In this document: one piece after another, positions 4,121 through 46,112 of the stretch | Layout of the letters: each line of letters starts with the position of its first letter | Numbering within the stretch: the first letter of the stretch is position 1 | Assembly: GCF_041886205.1 (NCBI RefSeq) | Contig: NZ_CP169029.1 | Reading direction: 5' to 3' (one strand) | Origin: Escherichia coli | GTDB lineage: Bacteria; Pseudomonadota; Gammaproteobacteria; Enterobacterales; Enterobacteriaceae | DNA length: 64,000 bases | Translations under genes and position numbers: made by a program | The notes under the pieces: generated by a model | Databases searched by the model: none | The model's input: the letters and a program-made list of their open reading frames with translations, nothing else | Told to the model about the DNA's origin: nothing

Positions 4121-5914
4121 TTAACGCACCTGCACGGAGATCAGCTCGCTACCGTCGTCGCCCAGCACGTGTGTTGAACAGGCGAGGCACGGGTCAAAGC
4201 TGTGCAGAGTACGCAGGATCTCCAGCGGTTGCTCGGGGATCGCCATTTTGGTGTTCATCAGCGCCGCTTCATAAGCGCCAATCTGCCCTTTGGGATCGCG
4301 CGGGCTGGCGTTCCAGGTGGTCGGCACCACGCACTGGTAGAGATCAATCTTGCCATCGCGAATGGCGGCCCAGTGGCCTAACGCCCCGCGCGGCGCTTCG
4401 GTAAAACCGACACCACGGCACTCTGTCGGCCAGGTTGTGGGTTCCCATTTTTCCGTGGAGGCGGTGGCAAGATTGCCGTTTTTCAGGTTAGTCATCAGCT
4501 TGTCGAAGAAATACTGTAACTTACCTGCGGCCCACTGCGCTTCGTGCGCGCGGCACAAAATGCGGCCTAACGTTGACTGGATACCGGAAAGCGGCAGGTT
4601 CAACGCCGACATCATGCGATCGACCGACTCAACGGTCGCAGCATCGCCTTTGTGATAAGCGATTAACGTGCGTGCCAGCGGCCCCACTTCCATCGCGTTA
4701 CCGCGCCAGCGCGGCGCTTTGATCCACGAGTAGCGTTCCTGTTCATTCAGCTGCTGAATGTTGGTATCGCTGCCTTTGACATCGCCGGGGTTGTACCACG
4801 GGTCGGTAATGCCATCGAATGGATGACGCCCGACCTGATCGTTGGGATAACGATACCAGGCGTGATCGACAAACTCCTGCACCTGCTGCGGATCAACCAA
4901 ATCCACTGGCAGCACATTGTTGAAGTCGCCGTTAATCACCGCGCCGCCAGGCATCAGCAGACTTTTCTCTCCAAAGTCGTTGGCAATATCCGGGAATGCG
5001 CCGTAGCTGAGAACGCATTTATCAGAAAGACCAGTGCCGATTTCGCTCCACGGTTTGTTGAACTGACCGATGGCTAAGGCGTCGGGGATCATCACGTTGT
5101 TAATGAAATCCGCCGTGCGGGTAATGATCGACTGCACCAGGTTCAGGCGTTCCATATTGACCGCCCCGACCGCGCCGCTTTCGTCAATGTTAATGGCGCA
5201 AGGCATCCCGCCGACAATCCAGTTTGGATGTGGGTTTTTACCGCCAAAGACCGCGTGGATTTTCACAATTTCACGCTGGAAATCGAGAGCTTCGAGGTAG
5301 TGGGCAAAGCCCATCAGGTTGGCTTCTGGCGGCAACTTGTACTGCGGGTGCCCCCAGTAGCCATTGCGGAAGATCCCCAACTGCCCGCCTTCAACGAATT
5401 TCTTCAGGCGATTTTGTACGTCGAAGAAATAGCCAGGGGATGATTTCGGCCAAGAGGAGAGACTTTGCGCCAGTTCGGAGGTTTTTCGCGGGTCGGCTTT
5501 CAGCGCATCTAACACATCGATCCAGTCCATCCCGGCGAGCTGATAGAAGTGCACCAGGTGATCGTGGCACCAGAGCGTTGCCAGCATAATGTTGCGGATG
5601 ATATTGGCGTTGTCCGGCACTTTAATACCGATGGCATCTTCGATGGCGTAAACCGAAGCCAGGGCGTGTACGCCAGTACAGACGCCGCAGATACGTTCAA
5701 CGAACGCCCACGCATCGCGCGGGTCGCGCCCTTGCAGGATGATCTCCAGCCCGCGAAACATGGTGCCGCAGGAGACGGCATTGGTGATCACATTCTGATC
5801 GTTAATATTCACTTCGCAGCGCATGTGGCCTTCGATGCGCGTAATCGGGTCAACCACCAGGCGGCGTCCGGCATTATTGATGGTGTATCCCTGAGTTTCG
5901 TACTGAGTGCTCAT
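4121..5914 (-). CDS. hyaB: Hydrogenase-1 large subunit HyaB (597 aa, NiFe)
   Basis: Track [33 protein letters not shown]... with the RxCGxC N-terminal and DPCxxC C-terminal NiFe-binding motifs. Confidence 0.95.
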
Positions 5915-7029
5915 GCCTGTTTATCCTCATTGCCTGGCTGATGTTCGGTTTCTGTAGGTTGCTGGTTATGACGTCTGCGCTGGTCAACGGCGCTGGCGAC
6001 TGCGTGCACACCAACAGCCGCTGCCACCACGCCAAGCGCGGTTAAACCGACGGTGTCGGCGGTGGAATGAGTACCCATTTGCGGAATATCGACCACGCGG
6101 CTGTAGAACGAACCGCGATCCCAGAAACCATTTTCCGCACAACCCAGGCAGCCGTGACCAGACTGGATTGGGAAAGAAACGCCATCATTCCAGCGTGTGG
6201 AGGAACAGGCGTTATAGGTGGTAGGCCCTTTGCAGCCCATTTTGTACAGGCAGTAACCTTTGCGGGCAGCGTCATCATCCCAACTCTGGACGAACTCTCC
6301 GGCGTCGAAGTGGGCGCGGCGATAGCATTTATCGTGGATTCGCTGACCATAGAACATCAATGGACGGCCCATTCTGTCGACATCTGGCAAGCGATCAAAG
6401 GTCACCATGTAAGTAATGATGGCGCTCATCACATCCGGGATCGGCGGGCAGCCAGGTACTTTGATAATGGGTTTGTCGGTGATGACTTTGTCGATAGGCG
6501 TTGCCTGCGTCGGATTAGGTCGCGCGGCCTGCACGCAGCCCCAGGACGCGCAGGTTCCCCAGGCGATAATCGCGCTGGCTCCGGCAGCGGCACGTTTGAG
6601 TTTCTCAATAAACGGTCGACCGCTGCTGATACAGAACATCCCCTGCTCGCCCAGCGGCGGATTACCTTCTACTGCGAGGATATATTTGCCATTGTATTGC
6701 GCGATGATGTCTTCAAAGACTTCTTCCGCCTGGGTTCCGGCGGCAGCCATCAAAGTATCGTCGTAATCGAGGGAAATCAGGGAAAGGATGACGTCCTTTG
6801 CCAGTGGGTGAGCGGAGCGGATAAAAGATTCGGTACAGCAGGTGCATTCCAGACCGTGGATCCATACCACCGGAATGCGCGGTTTGTTCTCCAGCGCCCA
6901 GGCAATCTTTGGTGCCATTCCCGCGCCTAATCCCAGCGACGTGGCAGCCAGACTGCAATATTTGAGAAAGCTGCGTCGGGTAACGCCCTGACGCCGCATG
7001 GCCTGGTAAAATGTTTCCTCGTTATTCAT
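5911..7029 (-). CDS. hyaA: Hydrogenase-1 small subunit HyaA (372 aa) with twin-arginine signal peptide
   Basis: Track ORF 5911..7056; the known product starts at [24 protein letters not shown] (ATG at 7029), which carries a Tat motif RRSFLK. Confidence 0.93.
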
Positions 7030-7414
7030 ATCGCACGTCTCTTCTCCTTGCGACACCGGCAGGACACCGGGCGCTTATGGTCGGCAAGCGACGTCCCTGT
7101 AGCAAGGCAAACCATCGCTTCACGTGAGATGCTGAAAACGAAAGCTCATCCTTCTGCACTGGCGCACGTCGCCAGAAAGTGTTGTTAATAAAGAGTAGTG
7201 AAACTTTTGCACAAAACAATACAAACTGTGTGGATTTATCTTTTAGCGATAAAAATGGACCTATTTTTCTTTTTGCCGGGCGGTGGGGATGTTTAGCCAG
7301 TTGCTAAACGAGTAAAAGAGAAGGAATTCATGGTGATGAAATGATCAATCTGCTGTTATTTCACGCTATCAATGCACTTTTGGCTGTTTTTCAGGCAAAC
7401 AAACAAATTAGGGG

Positions 7415-7443
7415 TTTACACGCCGCATCGGGATGTTTATAGT
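7415..7443 (+). promoter_or_regulatory. serT promoter: TTTACA (7415..7420), 17-nt spacer, TATAGT (7438..7443), GC-rich discriminator
   Basis: Near-consensus sigma70 hexamers with ideal spacing, 12 nt upstream of the mature tRNA 5' end; the GC-rich discriminator GCGCGTC is typical of stringently controlled stable-RNA promoters. Confidence 0.75.
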
Positions 7444-7455
7444 GCGCGTCATTCC

Positions 7456-7543
7456 GGAAGTGTGGCCGAGCGGTTGAAGGCACCGGTCTTGAAAACCGGC
7501 GACCCGAAAGGGTTCCAGAGTTCGAATCTCTGCGCTTCCGCCA
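7456..7543 (+). tRNA. serT: tRNA-Ser (anticodon UGA), 88 nt, with encoded CCA end
   Basis: Sequence GGAAGTGTGGCCGAGCGGTTGAAGGCACCGGTCTTGAAAACCGGCGACCCGAAAGGGTTCCAGAGTTCGAATCTCTGCGCTTCCGCCA read directly; long variable arm typical of a class II tRNA. Confidence 0.95.
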
Positions 7544-7551
7544 AATAAGAT

Positions 7552-7584
7552 AAGGGGTTAGCTAAATGCTAACCCCTTTTTCTT
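7552..7584 (+). terminator. Intrinsic terminator after serT
   Basis: Hairpin AAGGGGTTAGC-TAAAT-GCTAACCCCTT followed by a T-rich tract. Confidence 0.8.
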
Positions 7585-7749
7585 TTGCCTGTCGAAATTC
7601 TCAGGGCGTTATATTTGCTTAATGACCTGATAATCCGCTGTTAAACCTGTTCCAGATCAAATGCGTAAAGATGGGTAAAACTTCTGGGTGCCCTTACGCA
7701 TTATCATTATGCTGCTTAATTAATTACATCTGTCATAGAGAGTGACTCA

Positions 7750-8409
7750 ATGGATCGTATTGTTAGTTCTTCACATGACCGTACATCACTGCTTAGCACC
7801 CATAAGGTGCTGCGTAATACCTATTTTCTGCTGAGCCTGACGCTGGCCTTTTCGGCGATTACCGCAACTGCCAGTACGGTGCTGATGCTGCCATCTCCGG
7901 GTCTGATTCTGACGCTGGTGGGTATGTATGGTTTGATGTTCCTGACCTATAAAACGGCGAATAAGCCGACCGGGATTATCTCCGCATTCGCCTTTACCGG
8001 TTTTCTGGGTTATATCCTCGGACCAATTCTGAACACCTATCTGTCTGCCGGAATGGGTGACGTAATCGCTATGGCACTGGGCGGAACGGCGTTAGTGTTC
8101 TTCTGCTGCTCTGCATATGTGCTGACCACCCGCAAAGATATGTCGTTCCTCGGCGGTATGCTGATGGCGGGTATTGTGGTGGTGCTGATTGGTATGGTTG
8201 CTAATATCTTCCTGCAACTGCCTGCTCTGCATCTGGCGATCAGCGCGGTCTTCATTCTGATCTCCTCTGGCGCTATTTTGTTTGAAACCAGCAACATAAT
8301 TCATGGCGGTGAAACGAACTATATTCGTGCCACGGTTAGCCTGTATGTTTCGCTGTACAACATCTTCGTCAGCCTGCTGAGCATTCTGGGCTTCGCCAGC
8401 CGCGATTAA
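7750..8409 (+). CDS. yccA: Inner membrane protein YccA (BAX inhibitor-1 family, FtsH modulator), 219 aa
   Basis: Track [37 protein letters not shown]... matches YccA. Confidence 0.93.
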
Positions 8410-9198: not shown

Positions 9199-10389
9199 AT
9201 GAGTGTACGTTTAGTGTTAGCCAAAGGGCGCGAAAAATCATTACTTCGTCGCCATCCGTGGGTCTTTTCCGGGGCCGTTGCCCGCATGGAAGGTAAAGCC
9301 AGCCTCGGTGAAACCATCGATATTGTTGATCATCAGGGAAAATGGTTAGCACGCGGCGCTTATTCGCCAGCTTCGCAAATCCGGGCGCGCGTCTGGACGT
9401 TTGACCCGTCTGAGTCTATCGACATTGCTTTTTTTTCCCGCCGTTTGCAACAGGCACAAAAATGGCGTGACTGGCTGGCGCAAAAAGATGGCCTCGACAG
9501 CTATCGTTTAATCGCCGGAGAATCTGATGGCCTGCCGGGTATTACTATCGATCGTTTCGGTAATTTTCTGGTGCTGCAACTGCTGAGTGCTGGCGCAGAG
9601 TATCAGCGCGCGGCATTAATTAGCGCCCTGCAAACGCTTTACCCGGAATGTGCGATTTACGATCGCAGCGATGTTGCGGTACGTAAAAAAGAAGGGATGG
9701 AGCTGACCCAGGGCCTCGTCACCGGCGAGTTGCCACCTGCCCTGCTGCCGATTGAAGAACACGGCATGAAGCTGCTGGTGGATATTCAGCACGGACACAA
9801 AACGGGCTACTACCTGGACCAGCGAGACAGCCGCCTGGCTACCCGCCGCTACGTTGAAAATAAACGTGTGCTGAACTGTTTCTCCTATACCGGTGGTTTC
9901 TCCGTATCGGCACTGATGGGCGGTTGCAGCCAGGTTGTCAGCGTTGATACCTCCCAGGAAGCGCTGGATATTGCACGGCAGAACGTTGAGCTGAACAAAC
10001 TGGATCTGAGCAAGGCTGAGTTTGTCCGTGATGATGTCTTTAAATTGCTGCGTACTTATCGCGATCGCGGTGAAAAATTTGACGTTATCGTGATGGACCC
10101 GCCGAAGTTTGTTGAGAATAAAAGCCAGTTGATGGGCGCGTGTCGTGGCTATAAAGACATCAACATGCTGGCGATTCAGCTGCTGAATGAAGGCGGTATT
10201 CTCCTGACTTTCTCCTGTTCCGGTCTGATGACCAGCGATTTATTTCAGAAAATCATCGCGGATGCCGCAATTGATGCCGGTCGTGATGTACAATTTATAG
10301 AGCAGTTCCGTCAGGCAGCCGATCATCCGGTGATCGCTACCTACCCGGAAGGGCTATATCTGAAAGGGTTTGCCTGTCGCGTCATGTAA
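9199..10389 (+). CDS. rlmI: 23S rRNA m5C1962 methyltransferase RlmI (396 aa)
   Basis: Track [30 protein letters not shown]... matches RlmI (YccW). Confidence 0.93.
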
Positions 10390-15275: not shown

Positions 15276-17438
15276 ATGGCCTTTATGCTAAGTCCTTTGC
15301 TCAAACGCTATACCTGGAACAGCGCCTGGCTGTATTACGCGCGTATTTTTATTGCGCTTTGTGGAACCACAGCGTTTCCGTGGTGGCTGGGTGATGTAAA
15401 ACTGACGATTCCGCTAACGCTGGGGATGGTGGCAGCGGCGCTGACCGATCTCGATGACCGACTGGCGGGACGTTTGCGTAACCTCATCATTACGCTGTTC
15501 TGCTTTTTTATCGCCTCGGCCTCAGTAGAATTGCTGTTTCCCTGGCCCTGGCTATTTGCGATTGGCTTAACGCTCTCTACCAGCGGCTTCATTTTGCTCG
15601 GCGGTCTGGGTCAACGCTATGCAACAATTGCCTTCGGTGCATTGCTGATCGCCATTTACACTATGTTGGGAACATCACTTTATGAGCACTGGTATCAGCA
15701 GCCGATGTATCTGCTGGCCGGTGCCGTCTGGTACAACGTCCTGACACTTATTGGTCATCTGCTGTTCCCGGTCCGCCCGCTGCAGGACAACCTGGCGCGT
15801 TGCTATGAACAACTGGCGCGTTATCTTGAGCTCAAGTCGCGCATGTTTGATCCTGATATTGAAGATGAAAGCCAGGCACCGCTGTACGATTTGGCTCTCG
15901 CCAACGGACAGCTGATGGCGACATTGAATCAGACGAAACTCTCGCTGCTGACCCGCTTACGTGGCGATCGTGGTCAACGGGGAACGCGTCGCACGCTGCA
16001 TTATTACTTTGTCGCGCAGGATATTCACGAGCGTGCCAGCTCTTCTCATATTCAGTATCAAACATTGCGTGAACATTTTCGCCACAGCGACGTGCTGTTC
16101 CGTTTTCAGCGGCTGATGTCGATGCAGGGCCAGGCGTGCCAGCAACTGTCACGCTGTATTTTGCTGCGTCAGCCTTATCAACATGATCCGCATTTTGAGC
16201 GCGCTTTTACGCATATTGATGCTGCCCTGGAGCGGATGCGCGATAACGGCGCGCCTGCCGATTTACTCAAAACACTAGGATTTTTGCTGAACAATTTACG
16301 CGCCATTGATGCCCAACTGGCAACAATTGAATCAGAACAGGCCCAGGCACTACCCCATAATAATGACGAAAATGAGCTCGCTGATGACAGCCCGCACGGA
16401 TTGAGTGATATCTGGCTGCGTCTTAGCCGTCACTTCACGCCGGAGTCCGCCCTCTTCCGTCATGCGGTTAGAATGTCGCTGGTGTTGTGTTTCGGCTACG
16501 CCATCATTCAGATAACCGGAATGCATCACGGGTATTGGATCTTGCTGACAAGTTTGTTTGTCTGCCAGCCAAACTATAACGCCACGCGCCACCGCCTGAA
16601 GTTAAGGATTATTGGTACGCTGGTAGGTATCGCCATTGGCATTCCTGTGCTGTGGTTTGTACCGTCACTGGAAGGGCAGCTGGTGCTACTGGTTATTACC
16701 GGCGTGCTCTTTTTTGCCTTCCGTAACGTGCAATATGCCCATGCAACGATGTTCATCACACTTTTGGTGCTACTGTGTTTTAACTTGCTGGGTGAAGGTT
16801 TTGAAGTAGCGTTACCTCGCGTAATCGATACGCTGATTGGTTGTGCCATTGCGTGGGCGGCAGTGAGCTACATCTGGCCTGACTGGCGGTTTCGCAATCT
16901 GCCGCGCATGCTCGAACGCGCCACCGAGGCCAACTGTCGGTATCTCGATGCCATACTGGAGCAATACCATCAGGGGCGTGATAACCGTCTGGCGTATCGT
17001 ATTGCCCGCCGCGATGCACACAACCGTGATGCTGAGCTGGCGTCGGTGGTATCAAACATGTCCAGCGAACCGAACGTTACCCCGCAAATTCGAGAGGCCG
17101 CGTTTCGGTTACTGTGCCTTAACCATACGTTTACCAGCTATATCTCAGCCCTCGGTGCTCACCGGGAGCAGTTAACTAATCCTGAAATTCTGGCGTTTCT
17201 TGATGACGCAGTTTGCTATGTTGATGACGCGTTACATCATCAACCTGCTGATGAAAAACGCGTCAATCAGGCATTAGCTGGCCTGAAACAGCGGATGCAG
17301 CAACTTGAACCACGGGCAGACAGCAAAGAACCTCTGGTCGTACAACAAGTTGGGTTATTGATTGCATTACTGCCTGAGATTGGTCGTCTGCAACGCCAGA
17401 TTACTCAAGTTCCGCAGGAAACTCCTGTTTCGGCGTAA
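15276..17438 (+). CDS. yccS: Inner membrane protein YccS (FUSC-like, about 717-720 aa); alternative start at 15285
   Basis: Track ORF MAFMLSPLLKRYTWNSAWLYYARIF...; I recall the reference product starting MLSPLL (ATG 15285). Begins 10 nt after the yccF stop, so likely co-transcribed. Confidence 0.88.
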   Translation: MAFMLSPLLKRYTWNSAWLYYARIFIALCGTTAFPWWLGDVKLTIPLTLGMVAAALTDLDDRLAGRLRNLIITLFCFFIASASVELLFPWPWLFAIGLTLSTSGFILLGGLGQRYATIAFGALLIAIYTMLGTSLYEHWYQQPMYLLAGAVWYNVLTLIGHLLFPVRPLQDNLARCYEQLARYLELKSRMFDPDIEDESQAPLYDLALANGQLMATLNQTKLSLLTRLRGDRGQRGTRRTLHYYFVAQDIHERASSSHIQYQTLREHFRHSDVLFRFQRLMSMQGQACQQLSRCILLRQPYQHDPHFERAFTHIDAALERMRDNGAPADLLKTLGFLLNNLRAIDAQLATIESEQAQALPHNNDENELADDSPHGLSDIWLRLSRHFTPESALFRHAVRMSLVLCFGYAIIQITGMHHGYWILLTSLFVCQPNYNATRHRLKLRIIGTLVGIAIGIPVLWFVPSLEGQLVLLVITGVLFFAFRNVQYAHATMFITLLVLLCFNLLGEGFEVALPRVIDTLIGCAIAWAAVSYIWPDWRFRNLPRMLERATEANCRYLDAILEQYHQGRDNRLAYRIARRDAHNRDAELASVVSNMSSEPNVTPQIREAAFRLLCLNHTFTSYISALGAHREQLTNPEILAFLDDAVCYVDDALHHQPADEKRVNQALAGLKQRMQQLEPRADSKEPLVVQQVGLLIALLPEIGRLQRQITQVPQETPVSA

Positions 17439-18030
17439 GAGAGTCAGCCCATTCTGCTAGCTCCTGGCGGCGTGCCACCGGGAGCGCAGCTTCATGAATC
17501 CCGATAATGGCACCTTCAAGCATAAACAGAATCTTTTCTGTCACCAGACTGTTTTGCTGCCGCAGTCGCAACCAACACATTTTTGCCCCAAGTATACGTA
17601 ACGCCCGTACATCCTTAATCCCCACCTCCCCGAGAATCGCTTCCAGATGAAAAGACATATTGGGCAAATCTTTCAGTCTTTCCCGGGTATTGCGCGTGCT
17701 TTTCTCTTTCAGCGCTGCATCGAGAGAATATTTCGACAGACGCACCAGCTTCAGTTGATTTCGCCATAGACTTTCATCAACCCGATAGTAATTGAGGGTA
17801 ACGGATCGGCCACACTTTTTATATGTCAGCCAGACAGGCGGATGTTTTACACAGTACTGTGCACTTTGCTCACAAGCCCGAAGATACAACTCACCATCAG
17901 AAACCATCGCAAACACCGTGTCGTCAACGGTCAGGCTGTAACTACCAAACAATGATCGGTATTCAATTGTGCCCAACGTTGCCAGGTATTCTTGTGATTT
18001 ATAGATCCGCTTATAGGAGAGGTTTTTCAT
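17401..18030 (-). CDS. sxy: Competence regulator Sxy/TfoX (209 aa)
   Basis: Track ORF MKNLSYKRIYKSQEYLATLGTIEYRSLFGSYSLTVDD... matches Sxy; 3' end overlaps the yccS 3' end by 38 nt. Confidence 0.92.
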   Translation of the reverse strand: MKNLSYKRIYKSQEYLATLGTIEYRSLFGSYSLTVDDTVFAMVSDGELYLRACEQSAQYCVKHPPVWLTYKKCGRSVTLNYYRVDESLWRNQLKLVRLSKYSLDAALKEKSTRNTRERLKDLPNMSFHLEAILGEVGIKDVRALRILGAKMCWLRLRQQNSLVTEKILFMLEGAIIGIHEAALPVARRQELAEWADSLTPKQEFPAELE

Positions 18031-18206
18031 AAAATTCCTTTTAAAATCATAATATAAAAGAATGATTCACATTAACGGATCCGTTAAATACGAAAATAGG
18101 CAACTTCTTCTTTAGGGGCAAGATTAATTTATGTTTTCCCGTCACCAACGACAAAATTTGCGAGGCTCTTTCCGAAAATAGGGTTGATCTTTGTCGTCAC
18201 TGGATG

Positions 18207-45909: not shown

Positions 45910-46100
45910 TGCCGGATGTGCCGCACAAAACCAGCAGTTTCAACGGATTGTAGGCCTGATAAGACGCGTCAAGCGTCGCATCAGGCATTTGGGCACGGCT
46001 GCCGGATGCGGCGTGAACGCCTTATCCAGCCTACAAAACCAGCATTTTCAACGGACTTGTAGGCCTGATAAGACGCGTCAAGCGTCGCATCCGGCATTTT
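45910..46100. repeat. REP/BIME cluster: two ~66-nt direct repeats (45927..45992 and 46035..46100) with an inverted REP-like copy between them
   Basis: Repeated motif TGTAGGCCTGATAAGACGCGTCAAGCGTCGCATC(A/C)GGCA and inverted GCCGGATGCGGCGTGAACGCCTTATCCAGCCTACA, the canonical E. coli REP palindrome family, between convergent ssuB and pepN. Confidence 0.9.
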
Positions 46101-46112
46101 GGCTCAAAAGTA

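Follow-up and report, generated by a model that had tools for sequence, protein, structure and literature searches.

Transcription units and an unoccupied prophage site at the hyaA–serT–yccA locus of Escherichia coli

A tRNA gene placed between a divergent hydrogenase operon and a protein-coding gene on its own strand raises two questions: whether the neighbouring units share a regulatory region, and whether the tRNA gene has served foreign DNA as a point of entry. Both questions apply to serT in the window analysed here, a 64,000-nt stretch of DNA from Escherichia coli (contig NZ_CP169029.1 of assembly GCF_041886205.1), for which an earlier note had proposed a regulatory region common to hya and serT and the lack of an integrated island. 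The stretch is almost certainly normal E. coli backbone reaching from the hydrogenase-1 operon to yccA, with three independent transcription units accommodated in 720 bp and the phage attachment site (attB) in serT left unoccupied. The locus is already known and ordinary, and the finding as given matters little: a textbook locus is intact and a tRNA gene known for phage attachment is vacant, which provides a clean empty-site reference.

Gene order and identity of the locus

The hyaA gene begins with an ATG at position 7029 on the minus strand and is separated by a spacer of 426 bp from serT, which is followed, after a second spacer of 206 bp, by yccA (Table 1). The hyaA product matched the NCBIfam model for the hydrogenase small subunit with 674 bits and carries a Tat signal, while the coordinates of the gene coincide with the RefSeq annotation of a 99.9 % identical genome; TusE was also named by NCBIfam among the flanking proteins. 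When a 1-kb query over the locus was used, matches were obtained in 5425 of the 5426 complete E. coli genomes, annotated there as hyaA, tRNA-Ser and yccA. LHM10-1 was the best among the matches listed (99.9 %), and K-12 BW25113 matched the same query at 99.3 %. The window's first 50 kb are collinear with the LHM10-1 genome at 99.88 % identity, and hyaA, serT and yccA are annotated there at exactly equal coordinates.

Table 1. Features of the hyaA–serT–yccA locus, with positions in the window
Feature	Position	Strand	Basis
hyaA, hydrogenase-1 small subunit, first gene of the hya operon	5911..7029	-	ORF list; NCBIfam; RefSeq
hya leader (5′ UTR), ~156 nt, 58 % GC; predicted transcription start near 7185	7030..7185	-	GC content; published primer
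Predicted hya core promoter: −35 TTGTTT (7219–7214) inside IscR half-site, −10 TACTCT (7197–7192)	7192..7219	-	Derived positions
IscR type II site of the hya promoter	7211..7239	-	Identity to PDB 4HF1 DNA; type II consensus
AT-rich hya upstream control region, the ArcA/AppY region of published work; Escherichia-specific	7240..7329	-	GC content; homology limits
Conserved serT upstream block, A-rich, ~85 bp before the −35	7330..7414	+	Homology with Citrobacter, Salmonella and others
serT promoter: −35 TTTACA (7415–7420), 17-nt spacer, −10 TATAGT (7438–7443), discriminator GCGCGTC (7444–7450)	7415..7450	+	Motif scan
serT, tRNA-Ser(UGA), 88 nt, long variable arm, encoded CCA (7541–7543)	7456..7543	+	ARAGORN; Rfam
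Empty putative attB identity block of serT-integrating lambdoid phages, from the anticodon stem-loop to 5 nt past CCA	7484..7548	+	Phage attP identity; lysogen junctions
serT intrinsic terminator: 11-bp stem (7552–7578), 5-nt loop, T-run	7552..7588	+	Motif scan; folding
yccA promoter region with perfect CpxR box GTAAA-N5-GTAAA (7665–7679)	7633..7749	+	Motif search
yccA, FtsH protease modulator	7750..8409	+	NCBIfam equivalog NF007765, 456 bits; RefSeq annotation

Promoters and terminator of the three transcription units

The only tRNA gene detected by ARAGORN in the whole 64-kb window is tRNA-Ser(tga) at the position of serT. The Rfam tRNA model gave it 57.5 bits (gathering score, 29), and in both sequence and position it equals the gene that is annotated in E. 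coli between hyaA and yccA. The first 50 nt of serT were present in 64 loci from species-representative genomes, of which 63 had enough upstream sequence to be scored; the gene itself is unchanged in 61 of 63 loci, with more than 15 genera represented. The near-consensus promoter that had been described in front of serT, TTTACA-N17-TATAGT, was recovered at 7415–7443, with 10 of its 12 hexamer positions matching the consensus. The promoter scan of the surrounding kilobase returned two promoter-like matches, that of serT included, where 1.1 would be expected by chance. The function of the serT promoter appears to be better backed by its conservation across genera than by such chance statistics: the two hexamers, 17 nt apart, recur in each of the 63 enterobacterial loci, all of which have a G+C-rich discriminator. 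The mature 5′ end of serT lies 12 nt past the −10, and transcription would start near 7450–7451 with a leader of ~5 nt, which is 2 nt longer in 14 of the loci.

The serT promoter is a strong sigma-70 promoter of the stable-RNA type. The tyrT and rrnB P1 promoters are textbook stable-RNA promoters under stringent control, and serT resembles them in its near-consensus hexamers, in the 17 nt that separate these, in the G+C-rich discriminator right after the −10 and in its A-rich upstream region. The discriminator and this resemblance suggest that serT may also be under stringent (ppGpp/DksA) control. The conserved upstream block, in which homology with other genera begins at 7327–7341, is probably a UP element or a Fis region.

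The stem of the serT terminator includes six GC pairs, and the T-run TTTTCTTTT follows directly after it. The terminator folds with −21.6 kcal/mol (z = −5.85), and none of 200 shuffled sequences folded as well. A hairpin with a T-run is also found 8–10 nt past the CCA in the 63 loci and in the attP copies carried by phages, despite very different stems, as judged by eye and without statistical scoring; the phage copies differ in the stem by compensating changes. The sole tRNA-Ser(UGA) gene, serT would be transcribed rightward into a precursor of ~137 nt that ends at the terminator and is then trimmed to 88 nt. The description of serT as an independent transcription unit, with a promoter and a terminator of its own and yccA directly after it, was thereby confirmed.

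The hya promoter is predicted to fire leftward from ~7185. Its positions were derived indirectly from a mutagenesis primer published in PMC8561392, which places insertions 'at −17 and −19', and hold within 1–2 nt. In the same work, the hya −35 sits within the right half-site of IscR's repressor site (PMC8561392), and in the window the predicted −35 would likewise be buried in the IscR site at 7211–7239. Read from 7239 down to 7211 on the minus strand, 29 of 29 nt are equal to the DNA in PDB 4HF1, the IscR–hya complex (sequence from PMC6480146). The IscR type II consensus is matched with one mismatch at 7213–7237; since matches to this consensus are not above chance (13 in the window vs 8.9 expected), the site was assigned by its exact match to the published one. 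The published regulators of hya are IscR (PMC8561392), ArcA and AppY. An AppY ChIP peak lies in the hya promoter region, a hya fragment from −200 to +40 was used in published work, and the published AppY 8-mer ATGSCWGM has no exact match in 7030–7455.

The IscR site and the published regulation by IscR, ArcA and AppY bear out the complex control of hya that the earlier note had expected next to serT. Its description of the hyaA upstream region (7030–7414) as long and AT-rich was only partly correct. The region as a whole has 44.9 % GC, compared with 51.3 % for the window, and is divided into a segment of 58 % GC at 7030–7170 and one of 37 % GC at 7171–7414 (244 bp); the description thus fits the latter and fails for the GC-rich leader proximal to hyaA. 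The AT-rich control region would then lie upstream of the hya promoter, with the 156-nt leader downstream. Homology of this region to other genera was not found by blastn to the left of 7327–7341.

The two units stand back to back, and hya and serT could be read as functionally coupled divergent promoters that act on each other through common regulator sites or through supercoiling; moreover, the outer ~55 bp of the published −200 hya fragment (to ~7385) overlap the serT upstream block (from 7330). However, the transcription starts of hya (~7185) and serT (~7450) are ~265 bp apart, and the serT upstream block is kept in genera in which its neighbour is yccA or another gene rather than hya, which indicates that the block works independently of hya. 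The juxtaposition of hya and serT is confined to Escherichia, and IscR, ArcA and AppY are not regulators of stable RNA. Functional coupling is thus very unlikely, and the proposal that hya and serT share a regulatory region was not upheld, as no evidence of common control elements was obtained. The preferred reading is that of two independent units placed side by side.

It is even less credible, to the point of being nearly negligible, that the AT-rich spacer hides a small gene or a small RNA. A 4-codon ORF, ATGGTGATGAAATGA at 7331–7345, has a Shine–Dalgarno-like GAAGGA 6 nt ahead of its ATG, but it spans the point at which homology with other genera stops and is not conserved in divergent Escherichia. 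The tRNA alone exceeds its gathering score in Rfam. The matches that appeared at a permissive threshold, to sX4 (20.6 vs 70 bits), ctRNA_p42d (20.3 vs 50) and the S4 leader, were all sub-threshold and were taken as chance. No feature is annotated in the hyaA–serT spacer of two RefSeq genomes in which the spacer is uninterrupted, and the other records listed name hyaA, tRNA-Ser and yccA only.

The yccA promoter region would form the third unit of the 720 bp. It is conserved with Citrobacter and Salmonella, where it lies on the opposite strand relative to serT, and it carries a consensus CpxR box that is the sole exact match in the 64 kb (0.08 expected). In published work, yccA is a Cpx-activated gene and GTAAA-N5-GTAAA is the CpxR consensus. 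The region is therefore presented as a candidate CpxR-activated promoter, with a putative box ahead of a gene known to belong to the Cpx regulon.

The attachment site in serT

In this genome, serT is not occupied by a prophage or an island. The last 24 nt of the gene have no second copy in the 64 kb at up to 3 mismatches, and a blastn-short search with 7456–7600 returned no repeat longer than 12–14 nt elsewhere in the window. Six-frame tblastn searches of the 64 kb with two integrases and one excisionase of serT phages gave only noise (E > 9), and neither a partial serT copy nor an integrase pseudogene nor foreign DNA was found between serT and yccA (7544–7749). Backbone genes alone are annotated over 50 kb in the collinear LHM10-1 genome (RefSeq). 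With no second copy of any part of serT and no relic of an integrase or excisionase in the window, the site is empty. The earlier note, which had seen no integrase and no obvious direct repeat of the tRNA 3′ end, was right on both counts, and its suggested search for a duplicate has now been run.

The suggested comparison with pathogenic E. coli revealed that serT is truly an integration site, which is occupied in other genomes and empty in the window. The site is contiguous in 4661 of 5426 complete E. coli genomes (86 %). In the non-contiguous genomes the match breaks just past serT, and the DNA downstream is that of a lambdoid prophage; such prophages were found in EDL933, other O157-type strains and E2865. 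A prophage junction on the yccA side is present in 748 of the 5426 genomes (13.8 %, or approximately one in seven), EDL933 included, and consists of an integrase gene and a phage arm, followed by serT from exactly 7484 (CGGTCTTGAAAACCGG...), the native terminator and yccA. A second type of junction, with the integrase directly after a rebuilt serT, occurs in four genomes. One 27-kb 'plasmid' record with the yccA-side junction is a chromosomal fragment full of frameshifts and was taken as an assembly artefact. The prophage at serT is presumably the one named CP-933M in EDL933 and Sp4 in Sakai. According to published reports, prophages reside at serT in O121:H19 E. coli and in E. albertii, and SPI-5 does so in Salmonella, and the role of the site was thus already known; literature searches for serT together with yccA and prophage, or for Sp4 together with serT, returned nothing relevant.

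The extent of the site is indicated by two phage genome records from a phage collection, in which the attP is identical to the window over 7484–7548 (phage Evi) and 7485–7544 (BUCT708). The segment 7484–7548 is accordingly the putative attB of the serT lambdoid phages, with the crossover probably taking place in the anticodon loop. The prophages do not displace the serT promoter or the 5′ 28 nt of the gene, and they bring the 3′ 60 nt along with a terminator. As the phages carry their own copy of this 3′ segment and a terminator, a complete serT would be restored on integration, and the terminator is seen to travel together with the 3′ half of the tRNA gene. The duplicated part is consequently not the last 15–20 nt of serT, as had been assumed, but the 3′ 60–65 nt from the anticodon stem. 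The exact limits of the attB block are of modest use for prophage typing and for work on integration modules, as is the occupancy of 13.8 % among complete genomes, which is almost wholly due to one type of junction.

Between the two junction types, the integrases share 58 % identity. The attP cassettes of Evi and BUCT708 are parallel in structure, each with one arm-type motif (TTGGTATA in Evi, TTAGAATA in BUCT708) ~110 nt before the core and three right after the terminator, the third post-terminator copy in BUCT708 being imperfect. Evi has its int gene on the P side, BUCT708 on the P′ side. The two phage groups share one attachment cassette, which is turned opposite ways with respect to int.

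Another explanation of the same flank is that the DNA 3′ of serT (7544–7590, including the terminator) is the scar of an ancient integrative element, the rest of which has been lost. Homology with a Citrobacter locus that is free of an integrase and has a different terminator ends at 7547, 4 nt past the tRNA, and homology with loci or phages that have a GGGGTTAnC...GnTAACCCC terminator continues to 7585–7594. The E. coli serT hairpin nearly matches that of a phage in a mussel ExPEC strain, and scars of this sort exist, since an attL–attR pair ~260 bp apart is found in S. arizonae. On the other hand, the core is present once, the terminator is not followed by arm-type repeats, an integrase relic was not found, and the flank is fixed in 5423 of 5425 E. 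coli genomes. This type of terminator is present in about half of the sampled enterobacterial species and may be ancestral, and copying may have run from host to phage or from phage to host. An ancient scar is thus distinctly improbable, and the preferred reading is that of a native flank next to an empty attachment site.

Orientation of the serT unit and comparison with known systems

The arrangement hyaA(−), serT(+), yccA(+) was found in four Escherichia loci, namely two of E. coli, one of E. whittamii and one of a further Escherichia species. In E. albertii, hyaA(−) and serT(+) are followed by an Evi-type prophage junction, and the sequence of the locus ends before yccA; the serT loci retrieved did not include E. 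fergusonii. All non-Escherichia loci that were long enough, with Citrobacter, Salmonella, Klebsiella, Enterobacter, Kosakonia and Cedecea among them, have yccA and tusE upstream of serT, encoded on the opposite strand. When compared by blastn with the same Citrobacter and Salmonella loci, positions 7330–7590 align in the plus orientation and 7633–8409 in the minus orientation, with ~40–50 unaligned bp between the serT and yccA blocks in both arrangements. These opposite orientations indicate that, relative to yccA, Escherichia carries a 260-bp serT unit (7330–7590) in inverted orientation, unlike all other enterobacterial genera sampled, and by parsimony the Escherichia orientation is the derived state. 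No convincing pair of inverted repeats was found at the edges of the unit; AAAAGAGAA at 7314–7322 and TTTTCTTTT at 7578–7586 are 89 % complementary, but this weak, low-complexity match makes an unconvincing recombination substrate.

In several Citrobacter, Salmonella and Cedecea loci, integrase homologues start ~195 nt past the start of serT. The DNA past the serT 3′ end differs genus by genus.

The serT locus lies on the clockwise replichore, and the plus strand of the window is the minus strand of K-12. Consequently, replication meets serT head-on in E. coli, and the late genes of the Evi-type prophages, presumably the Sp4/CP-933M group, are co-directional with replication and those of the rare second type would be reversed. 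These observations suggest that the flip of the phage cassette may compensate for the inversion of serT in the host. In full, an ancestor of Escherichia would have inverted the 260-bp serT unit, and the Evi-type phages, which dominate at serT in Escherichia, would have flipped the whole attP cassette, with its arm sites, relative to int in compensation; this history is doubtful and is proposed tentatively. A possible route to the inversion is that a whole integrated prophage was inverted together with its attachment sites and the prophage was then lost. If the proposal is true, Evi-type prophages keep the backbone and replication orientation of the serT prophages in other genera. The serT inversion and the cassette orientation are modest side leads, and the Escherichia-specific orientation of serT decides the side of the tRNA gene on which foreign DNA accumulates.

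Compared with the hyaA–serT–yccA locus of E. coli K-12, the window shares all genes, their order, spacing and motifs (99.4 % identity over 1601 nt). Ten substitutions separate the two sequences, five of which are situated in the hya control region (7043, 7181, 7194, 7274 and 7299), while no difference occurs at 7300–8024, which comprises the serT promoter, the tRNA, the terminator and the yccA promoter. The substitution at 7194 falls within the predicted hya −10, which reads TACTCT in the window and TACGCT in K-12.

The classification of tRNA-integrating elements includes attachment sites of an anticodon-loop class. The serT block likewise begins within the anticodon stem, on its 5′ strand, and continues through the tRNA 3′ end, and its symmetric stem flanks a 7-nt loop that would be able to serve as the overlap region. 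As regards SPI-5 and other elements adjacent to serT, the same tRNA gene is a landmark for foreign DNA. In Salmonella and other genera, yccA is located upstream and divergent from serT, and variable DNA follows the serT 3′ end, whereas in Escherichia the serT unit points at yccA and lineage-specific hya–app DNA is found on the 5′ side of serT.

Prophages and attachment cassettes at serT

The serT attachment site, which is empty in this chromosome, is occupied by a lambdoid prophage in 13.8 % of the complete E. coli genomes (748 of 5426), including EDL933. In the lysogens L001, L003 and L004 (O157-type and E2865), serT is retained from 7484 onward at the yccA-side junction. In the O157-type strain examined, strain 472, the prophage end adjoining serT contains tccP2 and an espV fragment.

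The integrases of the phage Evi and BUCT708 groups are related (58 % identical) and share a common serT core. Their attP cassettes are parallel position for position, with one copy of the arm motif approximately 110 nt upstream of the core and three copies past the terminator. The int gene lies on opposite sides of the two cassettes, which implies opposite orientations of the resulting prophages, with 748 genomes of the Evi type versus 4 of the BUCT708 type.

In the mussel ExPEC strain (L002), the 3' part of serT contributed by the phage shows a compensatory change in the T-stem, with T-A replacing C-G at window positions 7516 and 7532; this change is also found in two of the 63 species-representative enterobacterial loci. 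Since the change resides in the phage-supplied part, such lysogens would be predicted from the sequence to express an altered version of this tRNA, which we take to be single-copy.

A fragment of serT was additionally encountered in a 27-kb record labelled as a plasmid (L009, NZ_CP098186.1), which contains a chromosome segment with the order integrase, serT fragment, yccA, tusE and rlmI. Nearly every gene in this record is frameshifted, and misassembly of a long-read contig is a much likelier origin for it than a mobile copy of the segment. In the window, rlmI is an intact 396-aa ORF; the annotation of LHM10-1, the closest E. coli among the matches listed (99.9 %), has an internal stop in rlmI and a frameshift in sxy.

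Features of the serT region, the window and the phage cassettes
Feature	Location	Detail
Phage Evi attP	L005:2859-3140	arm motif TTGGTATA
BUCT708 attP	L006:2890-3140	arm motif TTAGAATA
serT attachment site	window 7484-7548	
serT with T-stem change	L002:6612-6699	
serT unit	window 7330-7590	promoter, tRNA, terminator
Hairpin 3' of serT	window 7552-7588	
Four-codon ORF	window 7331-7345	ATGGTGATGAAATGA, preceded by GAAGGA
Partial second serT copy	L030, +350 to +451 from serT start	matches window 7484-7585
CpxR box	window 7665-7679	GTAAAGATGGGTAAA, perfect consensus, 71 nt upstream of yccA start
rlmI	window 9199-10389	
sxy	about window 17401-18052	
Direct repeat pair	window 45925-45994 and 46033-46103	~70 nt each, 94 % identity

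Terminator variation and inversion of the serT unit

Among the 63 loci and the phage attP copies, the hairpin 3' of serT occurs in many sequence variants, yet its stem and T-run are kept at a constant distance from the CCA in all those compared. One type, GGGGTTAnC...GnTAACCCC, is common to about half of the 63 loci and is also carried by the phages; it may have been copied from host to phage or from phage to host.

In Escherichia, the serT unit has the opposite orientation with respect to yccA-tusE from that in every other enterobacterial genus sampled (L026, L030, L067 and L073 among others); in those genera, yccA is divergent from serT and variable DNA follows the serT 3' end. The four-codon ORF is positioned exactly where homology to the other genera ends, at the left boundary of the inverted unit. 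Divergent Escherichia do not conserve this ORF, which is probably due to chance. In L030 (Salmonella enterica subsp. arizonae), the partial second serT copy lies only about 260 bp past the first terminator, and the pair looks like the attL-attR remnant of a nearly wholly deleted element. Elsewhere in the window, the direct repeats between ssuB and pepN are probably intergenic repeat elements.

Control regions of hya and yccA

Five substitutions (7043, 7181, 7194, 7274 and 7299) distinguish the hya control region from that of K-12. Owing to the substitution at 7194, the inferred -10 element of hya reads TACTCT instead of the TACGCT of K-12. The serT and yccA control regions carry no substitutions relative to K-12. 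The CpxR box is the sole perfect match in the 64-kb window, where 0.08 would be expected, and yccA is a known gene of the Cpx regulon.
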